DNA from: Candidatus Poribacteria bacterium
GTDB taxonomy: Bacteria > Poribacteria > WGA-4E > WGA-3G
NCBI GenBank assembly: GCA_965242965.1
Contig: OZ251518.1
Location: 5,472,001 to 5,536,000, forward strand
Direction of reading: 5' to 3'
DNA length: 64,000 bases
The translations under genes were made by a program, and so were the position numbers. This document shows, in pieces, positions 24,298 through 62,126 of this stretch. Position 1 is the first letter of the stretch. Every line of letters starts with the position of its first letter. The notes beneath the pieces were generated by a model that saw only the letters and a program-made list of their open reading frames with translations, searched no databases and was not told the DNA's origin.

Positions 24298-24323
24298 CAT
24301 CATCTCACGAAAAGTGGTATAAT
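24294..24323 (+). promoter_or_regulatory. sigma70 promoter of Rpn gene 1 (near-leaderless)
   Basis: TTGACA, 18 nt, (TGG)TATAAT; ATG 9 nt downstream with no SD. Confidence 0.7.
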
Positions 24324-24332
24324 AATTCTATC

Positions 24333-25277
24333 ATGACACAATATGACGATGCAGCAAAATATCATCTGCTGCAAAACGCTGACACCCTCCTCCCGTATCT
24401 GCAGGATGCACCGAACCTGAAAGTGCTGCGGCGGCTGGATACGCAGCAGCCGACGTTGAAAACGCGGCATGCCGATAGCACGTGGGAGATAAGCGTTGAT
24501 GGAGAGGAGGGCATTTCGCATGTGGAAGTGCAGACGCATAATAGTCCGGAGCCGATGCCGTTCCGCGTGGCGGGGTATCACGGTTTCCTCATTGGGGAGC
24601 ATAAGAAGCCGGTGTATAGCACGGTTATCTACTTGCATGCCAAGGCGGGGCGGAATGACCCGGGTGGTTATGGTTATGAGTGGCATGGGCAGCCGTGTTA
24701 TCTGCTGACATATCGAGTAGTGCGTCTGATTGAGCTGGACGGCCCCTCGGTGTTGGAATTGCAGGCCCCGGGCTTGATGCCGTTTACGCCGTTGATGCGT
24801 CCCCCCGATGGGATGAGCGCGGAACGATGGTTGCAAGAGTGTATTGATGCAACCTCCTCGCTGTCTGTCAGTGTGGCGCATCGGCACGACTTGCTGGCAC
24901 TTCTGAGTATCTTCGGGAAATTGGGTTACGACGAGTCACTGATAATGAAGTCAGTGAAGGAGGACATGGTGAACGAATCACTTGTTTTTCAACGCTATGC
25001 CAAACGCTATGCCGAGAGCTATGCTGAAAGCTATGCCGAGGCGGCGATAAAACCGGCGGTTGAGGAAGCACTTGCGCGCGGCATTGAGGAAGGCGAGCGG
25101 AATGCCACGATTGGGACTATCCTCAGTTTCCTTGAAGCGCGTTTTCAGACAACGTCAGTGCATTCCTTAAGACCGCTGCTTGAAACGATTGACGACATGG
25201 AGCGACTCAAGCAGCTGGCTCCTGCCGCCGCGTCGGCAGAGAACCTGGAGACGTTCCTAGAGGCACTCGGCCGCTAA
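24333..25277 (+). CDS. Rpn/YhgA-like PD-(D/E)XK nuclease 1
   Basis: YDDAAK, RHADS..HVEVQ, MPFRVAGY, YSTVIYL and GLMPFTPLM motifs, with a RGIEEGE helical tail. Confidence 0.8.
   Translation: MTQYDDAAKYHLLQNADTLLPYLQDAPNLKVLRRLDTQQPTLKTRHADSTWEISVDGEEGISHVEVQTHNSPEPMPFRVAGYHGFLIGEHKKPVYSTVIYLHAKAGRNDPGGYGYEWHGQPCYLLTYRVVRLIELDGPSVLELQAPGLMPFTPLMRPPDGMSAERWLQECIDATSSLSVSVAHRHDLLALLSIFGKLGYDESLIMKSVKEDMVNESLVFQRYAKRYAESYAESYAEAAIKPAVEEALARGIEEGERNATIGTILSFLEARFQTTSVHSLRPLLETIDDMERLKQLAPAAASAENLETFLEALGR
24966..25277 (+). CDS. putative internally initiated small protein (RpnS-like) of Rpn gene 1
   Basis: AAGGAGG at 24957-24963 followed by in-frame ATG (24966) and GTG (24969). Confidence 0.55.
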   Translation: MVNESLVFQRYAKRYAESYAESYAEAAIKPAVEEALARGIEEGERNATIGTILSFLEARFQTTSVHSLRPLLETIDDMERLKQLAPAAASAENLETFLEALGR

Positions 25278-25418
25278 CTTGTCGCTTTGTTCTTAAAGCG
25301 GCAACCGAAGAAAATCCCGATGCAGGAGAATGGGGGTTCTTCGCGAACCGAAGAAGGCGAGAGTCCGAGCGTTCTTGCCTTCTTTGTCTCCTGCCCCGGG
25401 ACCTGCAACATCTCGGCC

Positions 25419-25535
25419 GGGATGAGCGCGCCGCGGTGGTTGCAAGCGTGCATTGATGCAACATCCTTGCTGTCTGTAAGCGTGGCACATCGGCACGACT
25501 TGCTAGCACTTCTCAGCGTGTTTGGAAGGTTAGGT
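25419..25535 (+). pseudogene. diverged partial duplicate of Rpn gene 1
   Basis: GMSAPRWLQACIDATSLLSVSVAHRHDLLALLSVFGRLG matches 24810-24926 and is cut off by the element at 25536. Confidence 0.8.
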
Positions 25536-56094: not shown

Positions 56095-56458
56095 GTCCCG
56101 TGGCGCGGGGGCCTGTCCCCCGCGATCGTCCGACGAGAAGACGGGCCCCCGTTACCGTAGCGCGGGGGCCTGTCCCCCGCGATCGTTGCATGGCGAGGGA
56201 CAGGCCCTCGCCCTACGGTGCAAGGAACCGTTCTTAGTCCCGTAGCGCGGGGGCCTGTCCCCCGCGATCGTCCGACGAGAAGACAGTGCCCCCGGTCCCG
56301 TAGCGCGGGGGCCTGTCCCCCGCGATCTCTCGCGTGCATGAACGATGGCGAGGGACAGGCCCTCGCCCTACGAAAAAACGGCCGGGTCCCGTTCGTTGCA
56401 TGGCGAGGGACAGGCCCTCGCCCTACGAAAAAACGACACTGTCAAGGAAAATTCAAAA

Positions 56459-59400
56459 ATGCCGCAAAAAAAAGAGAACGTCATCACAAGTGCAGTAGTC
56501 GATGTGCTAGAGAATTTATTACCTCGCCAAGCAGGATGGGAAGTCGAAGAACAAGAAAGCGTCCTTGACGGAAACGCGAAGACCCCGGATATCGTCGTGA
56601 AACGACTCCGACACGAAACAGTCGGCATCGATGCAAAATGGCAGGTCGGCGATGGCGAGAAGGAACTCCAATCTGTCCGCGATAAATACTGGGGACAGCC
56701 GCTAATCTCCGAATTCCGCGGCAACAGTGCCGAGTTGAATACGGTGATGGTTATCCGGTATCCTGAATGCTTCCGCGGTCTGAAAAGATGGGAGTTACAG
56801 GAGATTCTTCCTAACGCCGGTGACATTGAGTATGTCCTAGTAGGCCAGTCAAAGGGGGTTGATTACCGTTTCCCGCGTTTGGGATTCGCAACCGGCAATC
56901 TCACGGATGTGGCAAACGCTATCCGAGTCGGCGCGGTGCCGAGTGAGCGCATCAAAGCCGCGGCAAAACAGATGAAAGCAGACGTTGAGGGTGCCGCGCG
57001 CGACTTGCACAACGCAGTATCTCAAAAATCCGTGATAGGCGAGGAACTGAAGGAGATTTTGGACCAGGTCGAATATAGTGAACAGGCTTCGCAGGTAGCA
57101 TGCTTGATAATTGTGGACGCATTCGTGTTCCAAAACTCTCTAGCCGGGGAACTGAGTCTGAAATCGGTTCGGCCGCCTGCCTATTACCAAGTGAACGGCA
57201 TCGACCTGAAATCGGTAGTGGCAGATTGGGATGCGATACTGAACGTCAACTACCACCCGATTTTCCAAGGCGCGCGGGATATGCTGTCCCGAGCGTTTAC
57301 CTACGACGCGGCGATGGCGAAAAAGGTGCTAGAGGAATTGTGCGATATTGCCTGCACGCTAATCGAGTCACACCTCCCACAAATCCACGAATTAGCGGGT
57401 GAGGTATTCCAAGAGCTGCTAGTGGACAGGAAGAACGTCAAGGCGAACTACACGTTGTCAGAGAGCGCGGCGTTCATCTCGGCACTGGCATGTCCGAGTC
57501 TGCCTGAGGAATTGACGCTGGAAACGCTGCCGAAAGTGGCGGATTACGCCTGCGGGACAGGAGCCTTGCTGAACGGCGTTTACAAACGCATCCAGCAGCT
57601 CTGGGAAGAGCGGAAAGGCGAAACAAGCGTCTGCATCCATCAGCACATGCTTGAGAATAATCTGGCGGGCTGCGACATCTTCACACACTGCACCCACTTA
57701 ACGTTCGCGGCGATGGCGAGCGCGCATCCCCAAGTGACACTCGGCGCAACCCGGGTCATCACCGCTCCCCACGGTAAAGTCAGCGAGACTGAATTCAAGA
57801 CAGGTTCGTTGGAGTTGCTAGATAACCAAATGCTATTTGACGCGTTGGATGCGTTTGACAAGCAAGCGAGCGGGGCTGAAGAAGCGACAGCAGAACTCAA
57901 GCGCGAATTCCCCGATGGCGAGATGGATATTGTCATCATGAACCCCCCGTTCCTGACGAACAGCGCGGACAATAATGCGAAGAATCAGAAGCTAGTCTTC
58001 GGTTCTCAGTATCGGAGTAAGGCAGAGCAGGAACTGATGCTGGAGGAACTAGGCAAGAAGAAATCGCGGGTTGGACATGGAAAAGTCCCATACTCCTATT
58101 TCGTGGAACTTGCTGATTTGAAGTTGCGCGACGGCGGACGGATGGCGATGATTCTGCCAGCATCGGTTTTCACAGTTCCTTCGTTTAAGAAGGTGCGCGA
58201 GATGTGGGCGAGGGAATATCACAACGTGCTCGTTGTGACTATGGCGCATAATAACGCGTTTTCTGCCGATACGACTATCGCAGAGTGCATGGTTATCGCA
58301 GACAAAGGCGTTGACAAGAATACAGGCAGGGCGAAATTCGTATCCCTCAGTGAGCGTCCAGGCAACCTACTTGCATCGCAAGTTTTGGCAACCGAGATAG
58401 GACGCAAGGAAGTCACGCGGCGATTGGAAGATGATGCGCTTGGCGGTGAACCCTTCAAAATTGGCGGCGCAAGTGTGGCTAGTGCGTTAGATTGTCCCAT
58501 TGATGCGGACGAATGGGGTGTATCCTGTCTGAAGGCAATGTCGTTGGGACAGATTGCCTATCAACTAAGTCATGGAAACTTGCGGTTCCCCGGTTTAATT
58601 GACGCACTGGAGCTCCCAGTATGTCCGTTGGGCGAAATCGGGAAAGTAGGGGCCAGCGAACCTGACATCAAGCAGAAGGGTAAGCGTGGTGCGTTTGAGA
58701 TGCACGAACGTGAGTCTGCCGTGCAAGAAGGGTATGATGCCATCTACAAATCGAAGAACATCACGTCGCAGCGGGCGATGCAAACCGTGCCAGACTACAA
58801 GGCGCAGATCAAACCTTTTAACGTAGAAAAGGCGCACAGGATTTTGCGTGAGCATAATAGCCGAACGCATTATCAGATGTATTTGGTTTACTCCGCTAAT
58901 TCGATGTTCTCGCATTGGACTGAAAGTCCATCGATCGGTGTTAATTTAATTACCAACGTTCGTTTGTCGGAATCGAAGTATGAAGCCGCATGGACACTCT
59001 GGACAAACTCAACACTGGGATTACTCTGTCACTGGGCGAGGGCTGGCAAACAGCAACCGGGACGCGGGATACTCAAATTAACGGGTTTGAAATCAGTGCC
59101 GACGCTGGATGTCCGTGAACTCTCGGATGTGCAATTAGCCGCGGCGGAGCATGTGTTCGCCGAATTGAAAACTGCACGGATGCTTCCCTACAACGAATGC
59201 CTCTGGGATGCGTGGCGACATATCCTTGATGCGCGGTTGCTTTCAGAGGTGCTTGGTATTGATGCGCCTGCTGTCCACGAGGCGATGCAGACGCTTCGTG
59301 AGATGTTGTCCGCTGAGCCGAGCATCACGGGTGACAAACAGAGCGTTTGCGACTTGGCGGCGGAGCGAGAAGAATACGGTTACGCCGATGACAGCGCGAT

Positions 59401-59500
59401 ATTGGCGACGCAGCAGCTTCAGTTGCGGATGCGAGGTATCCCGTTACCTGATGCATCCGCTGAATTTGAAAAGGCGCGGGCGGAAGCAAAGAAATCTTGA
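56459..59500 (+). CDS. single-chain restriction-modification enzyme (type IIG-like: nuclease, N6-adenine MTase, TRD)
   Basis: PDIVV..GIDAK nuclease motif, DYACGTG SAM-binding motif, IMNPPF catalytic motif, C-terminal TRD-like region. Confidence 0.8.
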   Translation: MPQKKENVITSAVVDVLENLLPRQAGWEVEEQESVLDGNAKTPDIVVKRLRHETVGIDAKWQVGDGEKELQSVRDKYWGQPLISEFRGNSAELNTVMVIRYPECFRGLKRWELQEILPNAGDIEYVLVGQSKGVDYRFPRLGFATGNLTDVANAIRVGAVPSERIKAAAKQMKADVEGAARDLHNAVSQKSVIGEELKEILDQVEYSEQASQVACLIIVDAFVFQNSLAGELSLKSVRPPAYYQVNGIDLKSVVADWDAILNVNYHPIFQGARDMLSRAFTYDAAMAKKVLEELCDIACTLIESHLPQIHELAGEVFQELLVDRKNVKANYTLSESAAFISALACPSLPEELTLETLPKVADYACGTGALLNGVYKRIQQLWEERKGETSVCIHQHMLENNLAGCDIFTHCTHLTFAAMASAHPQVTLGATRVITAPHGKVSETEFKTGSLELLDNQMLFDALDAFDKQASGAEEATAELKREFPDGEMDIVIMNPPFLTNSADNNAKNQKLVFGSQYRSKAEQELMLEELGKKKSRVGHGKVPYSYFVELADLKLRDGGRMAMILPASVFTVPSFKKVREMWAREYHNVLVVTMAHNNAFSADTTIAECMVIADKGVDKNTGRAKFVSLSERPGNLLASQVLATEIGRKEVTRRLEDDALGGEPFKIGGASVASALDCPIDADEWGVSCLKAMSLGQIAYQLSHGNLRFPGLIDALELPVCPLGEIGKVGASEPDIKQKGKRGAFEMHERESAVQEGYDAIYKSKNITSQRAMQTVPDYKAQIKPFNVEKAHRILREHNSRTHYQMYLVYSANSMFSHWTESPSIGVNLITNVRLSESKYEAAWTLWTNSTLGLLCHWARAGKQQPGRGILKLTGLKSVPTLDVRELSDVQLAAAEHVFAELKTARMLPYNECLWDAWRHILDARLLSEVLGIDAPAVHEAMQTLREMLSAEPSITGDKQSVCDLAAEREEYGYADDSAILATQQLQLRMRGIPLPDASAEFEKARAEAKKS

Positions 59501-59799
59501 ATCCAAATCTTGATGTGCCCGTAGTGCGGGGGCCTGTCCCCCGCGATCGTCCAACGAGAAGACGGTGCTCCCGGTCCCGTAGCGCGGGGGCCTGTCCCCC
59601 GCGATCGTTGAATTGCGCGGACGCTGGCGAGGGAAACCCGCTCGCATGCGCGTGTGGCATGCGAGGGCCCAAGCCCTACGATGAAGGAGGGGCTTTCTGC
59701 CGCCGCGGCCTCGGTAGGCGAGCCGCCCTATTGCATCGAGACCAGGAGGTCTCTCCTACGGGGATTTATGAAACCCCCTCACTATTGGGGATACCGGCG

Positions 59800-60078
59800 T
59801 TAGGTTTTGTTGTTTCGGTGGTAGTCCAGCAAGGTTTGTAATACATCGTCAAACGTTGGCGCGCGAAGGGCGGTGTAATGTAACTGCTCCAAGAGTTGCA
59901 AATCGGTGAGCGCCTCAAATGTAGGTTTGAAGAGAGCCACATCCGAATCGTCAAAGCGTGCATCCAATACCGCGAGGAGGTTATCAATGCCGAGTTGGAT
60001 GCCTTCTTTGCGTGCCTTTTGGCGTGCTTCCTCCAAGGGCTTCTCCATGAGGTCTTGTAAAAGCGATGCATGTTTCAT
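59800..60078 (-). CDS. stand-alone RpnS-like cassette 2 (92 aa)
   Basis: TCGGAGGAAGACATG start; homologous to the C-terminus of 60607-61572. Confidence 0.8.
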   Translation of the reverse strand: MKHASLLQDLMEKPLEEARQKARKEGIQLGIDNLLAVLDARFDDSDVALFKPTFEALTDLQLLEQLHYTALRAPTFDDVLQTLLDYHRNNKT

Positions 60079-60197
60079 GTCTTCCTCCGAAAGCATGGTG
60101 CGGGCTGTCTCCGAGTCATGGGCGCGATGGCGGCAAGAACGGTTCCGTTTCTCGGCGTTCGTCCCACGCGGCTTGGGATGCGCCGCGTGGGTTGGTG

Positions 60198-60488
60198 TTA
60201 GGCTCCGTTGTTTCGGTAGTCCTTCAAGGTTTGCATCACATCGTCAAACGTTGGCGCGCGCAGGGCGGTGTAATGTAAATGCTCCAAGAGTTGCAAATCG
60301 GTGAGGGCCTCAAATGTAGGTTTGAAGAGAGCCACATCCGAATCGTCAAAGCGGGCGTCCAATACAGCAATGAGATCAGTAATGGCACTTTTTTGTTTCC
60401 CGAGTTCGATGCCCTCTTGAAATGCCTCTTCGCGTGCTTCTTGCAAGGGCTTCTCCATGAGGTGTTCGAGAATAGATGCATGTTTCAT
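60198..60488 (-). CDS. stand-alone RpnS-like cassette 1 (96 aa)
   Basis: TCGGAGGAAGACATG start; homologous to the C-terminus of 60607-61572. Confidence 0.8.
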   Translation of the reverse strand: MKHASILEHLMEKPLQEAREEAFQEGIELGKQKSAITDLIAVLDARFDDSDVALFKPTFEALTDLQLLEHLHYTALRAPTFDDVMQTLKDYRNNGA

Positions 60489-60606
60489 GTCTTCCTCCGA
60501 AAGAATGGTGTGGGCTATCTCCCGGTCATGGGCGCGATGGAGGCCGGAACGGGTGCGTTCTTGGCGTTCGTCCCACGCGGCTTGGGATGTGCCGCGTGGG
60601 TTGGCG

Positions 60607-60885
60607 TTAGGTTCCGTTGTTTCGGTAATCCTTCAAGGTTTGCATCACATCGTCAAACGTTGGCACGCGAAGGGCGGTGCGAAACAGCAGCCTAAGGAGT
60701 TGTGCATCGGTGATGGCCTCAAAGATAGGTTTGTAGAGATCTACATCCGAATCGTCAAAGCGGGTGTCTAATACCTCGATGAGGATCTCAATGCTGTTTT
60801 CTCGCGCGCCGAGTTCTCTTCCCTCTTGGCGTGCCTCTTGCAAGGGCTGCTGCATGAGGTGTTGGAAAATAGATGATTGTCTCAT
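60607..60885 (-). CDS. putative internally initiated RpnS-like protein of Rpn gene 2 (92 aa)
   Basis: In-frame ATG at 60885 with GGAGG 5 nt upstream, the same start context as the two downstream cassettes. Confidence 0.65.
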   Translation of the reverse strand: MRQSSIFQHLMQQPLQEARQEGRELGARENSIEILIEVLDTRFDDSDVDLYKPIFEAITDAQLLRLLFRTALRVPTFDDVMQTLKDYRNNGT

Positions 60886-61572
60886 GTCTTCCTCCGAAAT
60901 AATGGTGTAGATTGTCTCCGAGTCATGGGCAAGATTGCCAAATATCCCGGTAGCCATCAGTAAGTTGTCGATATTCGCCGTGTCAAGCGGCAATTGCCGC
61001 GTCGTCTCGACGCACTGCCGCAGCCACGTGACACTATCCACTCCCGCCGGTGGTTGCATCAGCGGCAGAAACGGCATCAAACCCGGCGGGCGCGCTTCCA
61101 GAAGCGGTCCTCCCTCAAGTTCATAAAGCCGAACCACTTCGTATTCCGAGATGAACCGTTGTCCGGGAACATCTACATTTTTAAAATAACCCCCCGGGTC
61201 CCTGCGACCGGCGGGTGGATAAAAGTAGATGACATACGACCGGATAGGAAGTTCGTTGTCCTCAGTGCATCTCCCCCGGTAGCCGGCAATTCGGCGTTCA
61301 ATCGAAATTGGGTAACTATCGTGCAGCTGATATTCACGATGGATGAGCGTCGGTTCGCCTTCCAGCGAGATTTTCGTCAGGCTATCCATGCGTCGGACAT
61401 CCATCGCCGGGAGTTCAATATCAATATGCTCTATGATTTCAAAGTCGGCGGTGCCGAGTATCAGGCGCAACATGTCCTTTGGAAATGCACGCGCCGCGTG
61501 CTTTGCGGCAATATCGTACCGGTCCACGGGCAAGTTGTCCCAGTCAAAGGGTGTATAAATGCTGTTTTCCAT
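60607..61572 (-). CDS. Rpn/YhgA-like PD-(D/E)XK nuclease 2
   Basis: YDIAAK, RRMDS..HREYQ, RRIAGY, VIYF and GLMPFLPLM motifs, with a EARQEGRELG tail; paralogue of 24333-25277. Confidence 0.8.
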   Translation of the reverse strand: MENSIYTPFDWDNLPVDRYDIAAKHAARAFPKDMLRLILGTADFEIIEHIDIELPAMDVRRMDSLTKISLEGEPTLIHREYQLHDSYPISIERRIAGYRGRCTEDNELPIRSYVIYFYPPAGRRDPGGYFKNVDVPGQRFISEYEVVRLYELEGGPLLEARPPGLMPFLPLMQPPAGVDSVTWLRQCVETTRQLPLDTANIDNLLMATGIFGNLAHDSETIYTIISEEDMRQSSIFQHLMQQPLQEARQEGRELGARENSIEILIEVLDTRFDDSDVDLYKPIFEAITDAQLLRLLFRTALRVPTFDDVMQTLKDYRNNGT

Positions 61573-61579
61573 ACACAAT

Positions 61580-61609
61580 AGGATACCATAGACGCGCCGT
61601 GGTTGTCAA
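61580..61609 (-). promoter_or_regulatory. sigma70 promoter of Rpn gene 2 (leaderless)
   Basis: TTGACA, 18 nt, (TGG)TATCCT; ATG follows after 7 nt. Confidence 0.65.
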
Positions 61610-61851
61610 GTTTTTCTGACGAGTTATAGCGATTTCGTTCTTCTATCCTGCCGAAAGTCGGTTTCACTATGCATAATTTTAGCAGATCTGGTATAATTAT
61701 TGCAATGTTTAAAATCTGAAAAATTTTGAATGAATTCGCCTTAAAGGGGTTAAAGTTTTAAAATCCAATTTTCGGTAGGAGGGACATCCTTGTCCCGATA
61801 GTGCTTACATTGCACCTCGGCGGGCACTCCTTCGGAGAAAACCAAATAATA

Positions 61852-62107
61852 GAGGGTGTTTCATAAATTTATCCCTTGAGGGGAGGCGCATCGGGCCCAC
61901 CACTGTAGTTCGGGATCGCCCGATCCCGAACGGGTCAAGATCAGGCGATCTTGACCTACAGACCTGGCGCGCGAGCGATGGCGAGGGAAACCCGCTCGCA
62001 TGCGCGTGTGGCATGCGAGGGCCCAAGCCCTACGTGAAGGAGCGGCGTTTTTTCACCGTAGCGCGGGGCCTGTCATCGCAACGTTGAGCGATTTATGAAA
62101 CACCCTC
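61852..62107. mobile_element. MITE-like element with 8-bp target duplication AAATAATA
   Basis: Perfect GAGGGTGTTTCATA / TATGAAACACCCTC ends; AAATAATA at 61844-61851 and 62108-62115. Confidence 0.88.
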
Positions 62108-62126
62108 AAATAATAGAGGAACAAAT

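Follow-up and report, generated by a model that had tools for sequence, protein, structure and literature searches.

Downstream of a full-length Rpn-like gene of Candidatus Poribacteria bacterium, two stand-alone copies of the C-terminal domain of that gene are kept as genes, each with its own Shine-Dalgarno (SD) motif and start codon and under purifying selection. The gene, L, lies in a 64,000-nt stretch of a metagenome-assembled genome (GenBank assembly GCA_965242965.1, contig OZ251518.1, positions 5,472,001 to 5,536,000 of the forward strand), hereafter the window. Mosaic sequences in two species show that segments have been exchanged between the full-length gene and its stand-alone copies, which are called cassettes here. 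The locus probably works in the manner of the E. coli RpnL/RpnS/RpnSs systems, as a nuclease toxin held by its own C-terminal domain, with cassettes that would have arisen by duplication of the 3' end and been reshuffled afterwards.

Rpn proteins are a recently recognised type of defence and toxin-antitoxin (TA) system whose specificity lies in a hypervariable helix, and the diversification of this helix has been posed as a question (Zhong et al. 2023, PMC10400941, and a commentary); statements on the E. coli systems below are drawn from that paper. Positions refer to the whole window, whereas those preceded by C1 are coordinates in its own 5.70-Mb genome. S stands for the last 92 codons of L, and G002, G004, G025 and G054 are related genomes.

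Architecture of the locus

L occupies 60607..61572 on the minus strand, on which all elements of the locus lie, and encodes 321 aa from an ATG at 61572; an alternative TTG start at 61578 gives an open reading frame (ORF) of 323 aa (60607..61578). The N-terminal domain (residues 1-228; 60889..61572), in which D63, E80 and Q82 are invariant, is predicted to be a nuclease of the PD-(D/E)XK type. An internal SD and start (60883..60895) mark the domain junction, where GGAGG (60895-60891) is separated by a 5-nt spacer from an ATG (60885-60883). This ATG opens an in-frame ORF of 92 aa (60607..60885), the RpnS-like C-terminal domain, with a domain profile that matches canonical Rpn C-termini. In the first helix of this domain, a variable tract of 4-aa repeats (EARQ EGRE LGAR and so on; L residues about 246-259; 60796..60837) is the site of a 12-nt and a 15-nt indel.

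Two tandem units of about 400 bp follow, each consisting in this order of a GC-rich hairpin, a short spacer, 45 nt homologous to the segment before the internal ATG of L, and one ORF homologous to the putative antitoxin C-domain, with no second gene. The first unit comprises hairpin 1 (60572..60600; 10-bp stem and 9-nt loop, 3' of the L stop and without a U-tract), the 45-nt homology with its GGAGG (60489..60533) and cassette 1, a stand-alone RpnSs-like ORF of 96 aa (60198..60488). The second comprises hairpin 2, 3' of the cassette 1 stop (60163..60191), the 45-nt homology, again with GGAGG (60079..60123), and cassette 2, an RpnSs-like ORF of 92 aa (59800..60078), for which an alternative upstream ATG at 60096 gives 98 aa (59800..60096). 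The hairpin, CCCACGCGGC-N9-GCCGCGTGGG, occurs in exactly two copies in the window and in none of 100 shuffles; it follows the stops of L and cassette 1 but not that of cassette 2, and hairpin 1 was not called as a terminator in the window scan.

The tandem and diverged structure of the units is directly visible. Their nucleotide identity is 79-86%, and the mean column identity of the L 3' end and both units is 83% (alignment A2). The homology of both units to L starts at GCCCATGAC, 45 nt 5' of each ATG, and the 14 nt directly 5' of the ATG, TTTCGGAGGAAGAC, are identical in all three copies. Indels of 12, 15 and 3 nt separate the copies, all in frame and the first two within the EARQ/EG helix, so that cassette 2 differs from L by +4, -5 and +1 aa. 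At the protein level, tblastn puts the identity to the L C-terminal domain at 66.7% for cassette 1 and 60.2% for cassette 2, and a MAFFT alignment that includes the 8 residues before the ATG gives 69% and 67%; the two cassettes are each other's closest match at 77.9%. Both are about equally near their own L and a paralogue at C1:3437404 (60-68%). The preliminary description of the locus, made from the sequence without database searches, was correct in every particular checked, namely the ORFs, the ATG at 60885, the units, the hairpins, the 45-bp homology and the in-frame indels. Its view that the internal ATG defines a 92-aa C-terminal ORF agrees with the GGAGG-N5-ATG found here and with the RpnL/RpnS-like behaviour of the gene, and its stand-alone C-terminal copies are borne out by two intact units with their own SD and ATG and with purifying selection.

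The junctions were compared with short Logan contigs of public runs, which may include the source sample and of which no single piece spans the array. Contigs from two runs cover the junction of L and cassette 1 without mismatch (X1, 60474-60643; X2, 60475-60658), and one contig from one run covers that of cassettes 1 and 2 (X4, 60129-60254; three letters differ and one gap is present). Numerous joints leave out about 2010 nt (from 59759 to 61774) and could be read as an empty site; they were rejected as repeat artefacts because their sides are shorter than 30 nt and lie inside an abundant flanking repeat.

Paralogues and cassettes across genomes

An iterated profile search of all six-frame ORFs in the 5.70-Mb genome identified 18 full-length paralogues, each with an N-domain and a C-domain. 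Cassettes, that is C-domain-only ORFs, follow nine of the 18, always downstream and on the same strand: six genes carry one, two carry two (the L locus and C1:1155k) and one carries three (C1:4822360-4824165). Together with an orphan at C1:21.6k, the 13 downstream cassettes make up 14 stand-alone copies. A shufflon or invertible-cassette reading was ruled out, since all cassettes are downstream in direct orientation. In other genomes, extra cassettes occur at 12 of 80 related loci, again in numbers of up to three; related loci come from genomes titled Candidatus Poribacteria and, in some cases, Latescibacteria. Within the taxonomic family, 17 of 18 genomes contain members of the protein family, and one genome has as many as 79 matches, a figure that counts search matches rather than genes.

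Several of these loci have features of their own. The genome with 79 matches, G004, has at least nine of them within 21 kb (G004:C1:5264719-5285110), which suggests a large tandem array of whole genes. In the longest array of the own genome, C1:4822360-4824165(-), three 81-codon frames lie about 292-298 bp apart and give 77-aa cassettes from ATG, all length-matched to their gene, with ratios of nonsynonymous to synonymous substitution rates (dN/dS) of 0.14-0.42. Two tandem full-length paralogues, each 77-80% identical to L, are found at C1:3435502-3437694(+), and the repeat tract of the first is 16 aa longer. A paralogue within the window, named in the preliminary description (24318-25268(+), equal to C1:5496318-5497268; 34% identical to L), has no downstream C-cassette; a fragment after it (25413-25535(+)) matches positions 175-215 of the N-domain profile.

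Start signals and selection on the cassettes

Of the 18 paralogues, 17 have an SD-like motif ahead of the junction start, compared with 12 of the 152 remaining internal ATGs in these genes. The peptide contexts in which it is embedded vary (SEED, RRIT, PEGI, PEEVR, SEAT, LEET), and its retention across them argues for selection on the nucleotide signal. An internal start that would yield a small C-terminal protein, a hallmark of an RpnL/RpnS pair, is thus present at the level of sequence. Among the stand-alone copies, 13 of 14 have an SD-like motif 5' of the start (12 were flagged by a scripted scan and C1:223348 was added by eye), and in the fourteenth, C1:870106, the start overlaps the stop of the upstream gene as ATGA. 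The cassettes at the corresponding locus of G002 have lost the 5' homology to L and kept GGAG-N6-ATG, which fits translation better than recombination targeting.

Across all 18 within-locus pairs, dN/dS is 0.11-0.75 and the synonymous rate (dS) ranges from 0.20 to above 1. The pooled proportion of synonymous differences (pS) is 0.384 versus 0.151 for nonsynonymous ones (pN) over these pairs, which are not independent of one another. At the window locus, dN/dS is 0.56 for L and cassette 1, 0.52 for L and cassette 2, and 0.39 for cassettes 1 and 2. The comparison of dN/dS between cassettes proposed in the preliminary description therefore gave values below 1 in all 18 pairs, and with 14 of 14 frames open across the domain no pattern of decay appeared.

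Exchange between the full-length gene and the cassettes

In G002, which belongs to the same genus, the syntenic locus also consists of a full-length gene and two cassettes, with flanks 80% and 86% identical and the same methyltransferase-like and ABC-transporter neighbours; a comparison of cassette number with this related genome, of the kind that had been suggested for this array, thus returned the same number. Closely related units fall into two distal types, RFDDSDV...PTFDDV (first) and RFQDxDVQ...IDEVTR (second). L and both cassettes of the window have the first type, whereas in G002 the full-length gene and cassette 1 have the second and cassette 2 has the first.

Two of the units are mosaics. 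In cassette 1 of G002, the left part agrees with cassette 2 (38 of 38 informative sites) and the right part with the full-length gene (46 of 49). In the window L, the left part agrees with the G002 L (20 of 21 sites) and the right part with G002 cassette 2 (44 of 48). Both breakpoints fall at alignment columns 52-58, in or just past the repeat tract. The distal nucleotide identity of the window L is 82% to G002 cassette 2, similar to flanking orthologues, versus 65% to the G002 full-length gene. Permutation gave p = 0.0005 for both mosaics, a value that is uncorrected for the five triplets, which were chosen after inspection of the alignment. Thus, one and the same module is fused in one species and stands alone in the other, which fits the fusion of an N-terminal domain to an rpnSs region reported in E. 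coli (PMC10400941). The earlier idea of swappable C-termini exchanged by recombination gains direct comparative support from the G002 mosaic. A diversity-generating retroelement was also considered and rejected, as the differences between L and cassette 1 show no adenine bias (A 17, C 14, G 16, T 11).

Helix-1 repeats and predicted pairing

The 4-aa repeats EARQ, EGRE and LGAR (also EGIE) begin about 17-20 residues past the internal Met, within the 8-20 residues at which hypervariable 4-aa repeats characterise RpnS. The tract differs in length among 12 close units of two genomes, whose alignment shows the 4-aa units plainly, and other paralogues carry (EGRE)x8, (QGIE)n or (EGRx)n. The distance from the internal start to a distal anchor is 36 aa in L, 40 aa in cassette 1 and 35 aa in cassette 2. 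Across the genome, five of the 13 downstream cassettes match their own gene in this length (three loci were counted by hand), and five of the eight that do not match differ by multiples of 4 aa. The helix-1 length of cassette 1 equals that of the paralogue C1:3437404 (C1:3436720-3437694; 40 aa, 68% identity), which is no more than a weak hint towards the idea, put forward in the preliminary description, that the units are an antitoxin library directed at paralogous or incoming toxins.

Modelling of L(229-321) together with cassette 1 produced a complex with a score of 0.63 versus 0.01 for the best of three controls. Of 80 solved complexes, 58 reach this mark, as do 2 of 110 mismatched pairs. 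The runs agree in at least 96% of contacts, and the partner has a predicted local distance difference test (pLDDT) score of at least 83. In the predicted interface, helix 1 packs on helix 1, with L residues 236-271 against cassette 1 residues 14-46, and its core, L 247-260, is the repeat tract. The model shows a likeness to an RpnS-type dimer and not binding, because a like dimer (RpnAS) has already been solved.

Length differences are pronounced at three other loci of the genome. At C1:1913340-1914368(+), helix 1 contains eight consecutive EGRE repeats, and the downstream cassette is 24 aa (six repeats) shorter. The loci C1:2258063-2259257 and C1:3184742-3185924 are duplicates of a whole gene-plus-cassette pair; at both, the distal type of the cassette differs from that of its gene, and the repeat lengths are 40/28 and 28/32 aa.

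Family identity of L

The preliminary description had named L an Rpn nuclease. Remote homology by profile-profile comparison upheld this, while curated models failed to recognise the protein. A 75-sequence family alignment (A4) was compared by hhalign with a canonical set made up of E. coli RpnE and 17 ORFs of related genomes that score above the TIGR01784 threshold, and matched it with 95.3% probability (E 2.3e-8, 269 columns). The main source of this signal is the C-domain, which alone gave 97.1% (E 6.4e-11) against canonical Rpn; the match to E. coli RpnE alone was 3.75% (E 0.011). D63, E80 and Q82 are invariant across the 75 sequences and in register with the canonical D...ExQ.

A single-sequence AlphaFold2 (AF2) model of L was unusable (pLDDT 34.9), and an AF2 model built on A4 (pLDDT 85.9) was used instead. 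In VIA-align, residues 19-152 of this model matched NucS (2vld; Z 6.7, root-mean-square deviation 3.2, 102 aligned) and other PD-(D/E)XK proteins, including SdaI (2ixs, Z 6.6), Can2 (8bao, Z 6.7), VC1899 (1xmx, Z 6.5) and also Cas4. The C-domain is modelled as a 39-residue helix (234-272) and three short helices, and the nearest named ESM-Atlas clusters are Rpn/DUF4351 clusters (0.97), which is a lead only. Foldseek returned nothing for the L model at E<=0.001, a profile search of solved structures with alignment A3 gave chance-level matches only (E 4.3), and no RpnAS chain was returned by the structure-profile search, by Foldseek or by a wide VIA-align run with L.

Direct searches gave little. 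L and the cassettes have no Pfam match, nor have 28 family members at E<=1, and PF14261 (DUF4351) matches neither S nor the cassettes at E<=0.1. TIGR01784 scores L at 16.4 bits (E 0.006) versus a cut-off of 52.1, and TIGR01784 and PF14261 have no matches in the whole genome at E<=0.01 with positive controls. No PADLOC model matches L or cassette 1. The 84 database homologues of L include none with an Rpn-related Pfam family, proteins 91-96% identical to L occur on other contigs (P0002-P0004), and a metagenome scan with L gave 92 pattern matches, none of them a relative. These results show that the curated models miss this Rpn-like branch entirely. Because no curated model recognises L, its Rpn name rests on remote homology, and we call L a putative, very divergent branch of the Rpn superfamily and not a member of TIGR01784 or PF04754.

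Canonical, above-threshold TIGR01784 Rpn genes are present in the related genomes at G025:C1:806177-807323 and G054:C1:3407405-3408531. Behind each follows a small ORF that matches only the last ~50 model positions, and these ORFs look like single RpnSs-like copies.

Comparison with known systems

Single downstream stand-alone copies of RpnS are established in E. coli, where ypaA is rpnESs and rpnCSs is a further case (Zhong et al. 2023, PMC10400941). Such copies derive from the upstream gene and are lost when the N-terminal domain becomes fused to the rpnSs region, and tandem arrays of whole rpn genes have likewise been published (PMC10400941). The claim in the preliminary description that no such arrangement had been described is narrowed accordingly, as the single copies, their origin and their loss by fusion are in that paper. 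A literature search on arrays and on Rpn in Poribacteria found no arrays of two or three stand-alone copies, no account of this Poribacteria family and no cross-species swaps between L and cassettes, although the supplements of Zhong et al. may list or bear on some of these. The two- and three-copy arrays extend an arrangement described as single copies in E. coli.

The likeness to E. coli RpnL/RpnS/RpnSs extends to a predicted nuclease-type N-domain, a variable C-domain, an SD and start at the junction, early 4-aa repeats in helix 1, a stand-alone C-domain copy derived from the upstream gene and placed directly behind it, and its loss or exchange through fusion. The ypaA gene of MG1655 begins 13 nt past rpnE, which is similar to the stop/start-overlapped cassette C1:870106. 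The present systems differ in that the L family falls below every curated Rpn/DUF4351 threshold, in that the single copy of E. coli contrasts with two at this locus and as many as three at other loci of the genome and in relatives, and in that half of the 18 paralogues have cassettes, with units parted by GC hairpins. RpnAS has been described as a three-helix bundle, whereas the predicted C-domain here consists of a long helix and three short ones.

Cyanobacteria contain stand-alone DUF4351 (PF14261) genes beside Rpn/DUF2887-type genes. These are alike in being small separate genes for the Rpn C-terminal module only, and the Atlas clusters nearest to L carry DUF4351, but PF14261 matches no copy in this genome. 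Downstream of full-length toxin genes, orphan CdiA-CT/CdiI and Rhs-CT modules form tandem series of diverged 3' ends, in which a short 5'-edge homology to the parent allows recombination; they consist of toxin tips with cognate immunity genes, usually without start signals. The cassettes here encode a putative antitoxin or dimerisation domain, keep SD and start, and have no immunity gene, so that the analogy to orphan CdiA/Rhs modules drawn in the preliminary description is a loose one. In the pilE/pilS reservoirs, variant partial copies near the expressed gene engage in mosaic exchange, and pilS is silent, promoterless and without a product of its own. Partial variant copies and mosaic exchange are common to both, whereas the cassettes here look translatable.

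Proposed mechanism and alternative explanations

We infer translation, toxicity, neutralisation and a defence role for L, S and the cassettes. The 321-aa product of L would be a PD-(D/E)XK-type nuclease toxin, and judging from sequence conservation its last 92 codons would also be translated alone from GGAGG-N5-ATG. By analogy with E. coli and in keeping with the complex model, S would block L by pairing, via its long helix 1, with the same domain in the full-length protein. The cassettes probably arose when the 3' end of the gene, a segment that starts 45 nt ahead of the internal ATG and ends just beyond the hairpin, was duplicated in tandem. The mosaics in two species show that segments are swapped among L and the cassettes, by homologous recombination or by gene conversion, and that the breakpoints lie within the repeat tract or beside it. 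The cassettes would act in two ways, as additional or variant antitoxins and as a stock of other C-terminal specificities.

Several results weigh against this mechanism. Selection at the window locus alone is marginal (Fisher p 0.07, 0.04 and 0.015 for L with cassette 1, L with cassette 2 and the two cassettes), and for each pair a frame would stay open by chance, given as many random substitutions, with a probability of 0.13-0.25; the case for selection therefore rests on recurrence and conservation. In E. coli the repeat helix of RpnS is the dimer interface, and one extra repeat abolishes neutralisation unless both partners have it (PMC10400941). With eight of 13 cassettes mismatched to their own gene, and with cassettes 1 and 2 at +4 and -1 aa relative to L in helix 1, many cassettes would by this rule not block their neighbour, which leaves room for cross-immunity or a reservoir of specificities. 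The complex model cannot tell cognate from near-cognate partners. No promoter-like site was found 5' of the cassettes in the promoter scan, and with a strong hairpin between units their transcription could be low. On the side of the toxin, the N-domain alone matches canonical Rpn weakly (2.4% probability, E 0.019), and all fold matches of L lie at Z 5-6.9, where values below 8 can reflect a common arrangement according to the tool; the failures of Pfam, TIGR01784, PF14261 and PADLOC point the same way.

Among the alternatives, it is conceivable though rather unlikely that the cassettes are mainly silent or weakly expressed donors which replace the specificity module of L by gene conversion or deletion-fusion and are not antitoxins. 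The cross-species mosaics would suit such donors, as would the variable part flanked by the 45-nt homology and a near-identical 3' end, the hairpins and missing promoter-like sites, the eight mismatched lengths and the N-domain/rpnSs fusion reported in E. coli (PMC10400941). Donors would have little use for the SD-like motif and start kept in 13 of 14 copies, for the overlap suited to coupled translation in the other, or for the GGAG-N6-ATG that outlasted the 5' homology in G002, and ypaA (RpnESs) is made as a protein in E. coli (PMC10400941). An improbable reading takes L out of TA and defence altogether, as a DNA-processing enzyme, for example a recombination-related one, with the small proteins as ordinary regulatory or dimerisation subunits. 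The homology to Rpn is indeed only remote, and 18 copies per genome with up to 79 matches in a relative resemble a selfish or mobile element; against this stand the junction SD and start, the 4-aa tract of helix 1 and the downstream Ss copies common with RpnL/RpnS, the adjoining Eco57I/type IIG-like methyltransferase gene, and the argument that Rpn genes are not transposases (PMC10400941).

The cassettes might also be decaying, functionless debris of a 3'-end tandem duplication, since tandem direct duplications are common around rpn genes (PMC10400941) and the selection signal at the window locus is marginal. We consider this very unlikely in view of the 14 open frames, the ratios below 1 in all 18 pairs with dS up to above 1, the in-frame indels and a two-cassette array kept at the syntenic locus of another species between flanks 80-86% identical. 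An assembly artefact that stacked strain variants of one 3' end has next to no probability: the source is metagenome-assembled, the units are 79-86% identical and the Logan contigs break within the region, but both junctions are covered by public-run contigs, the same layout recurs at nine loci of the own genome, at the syntenic G002 locus and at 12 of 80 loci of other assemblies, and the units differ at 14-21% of nucleotides, far above strain-variant level.

Beyond the E. coli-like mechanism favoured here, the movement of one module between L and cassette positions across species led us to a more speculative idea, which we regard as possible rather than probable. The arrays may be a selected recombinational reservoir for switching of the C-terminal specificity and at the same time a trans-acting network against paralogous or incoming Rpn-like toxins; a literature search found neither role described for Rpn systems. 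If this is true, length-mismatched cassettes would neutralise other toxins, and a genome with 18 toxins would run an interlocking immunity network. Sponge symbionts harbour an unannotated and highly expanded Rpn-like family, with 18 copies here and up to 79 matches in a relative, in which stand-alone antitoxin-like copies can build up to arrays of two or three while staying under selection and modules move between fused and stand-alone positions. The nine cassette-bearing loci of this genome form a natural data set on spare antitoxins, cross-immunity and specificity reservoirs.

Genomic neighbourhood

A promoter-like TTGACA-18-TATCCT lies 5' of L (61580..61609, minus strand; 10 of 12 matches), which is a weak hint, as the promoter scan of the window was not above shuffles (3 found versus a mean of 2.1). 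Among the runs that hold the stretch, none is on record as RNA. The convergent neighbour of the array (56345-59500, plus strand) encodes a protein of 1051 aa that contains an Eco57I-type/N6 DNA methyltransferase domain, in addition to weak matches of the type IIG and PglX-like kinds. This methyltransferase neighbour, syntenic in G002, suggests a defence-type neighbourhood.

The flanks of the locus (59560-59800 and 61800-62110) consist of short GC-rich interspersed repeats, parts of which occur in about 700-2100 copies in the 5.7-Mb genome. Mobility of the locus through these repeats was dropped as specific evidence because of this genome-wide abundance. In sponge-metagenome runs the word depth of the flanking repeats is 100-1000 times that of unique sequence, and the two flanks have an 82-nt stretch in common at 93% identity.

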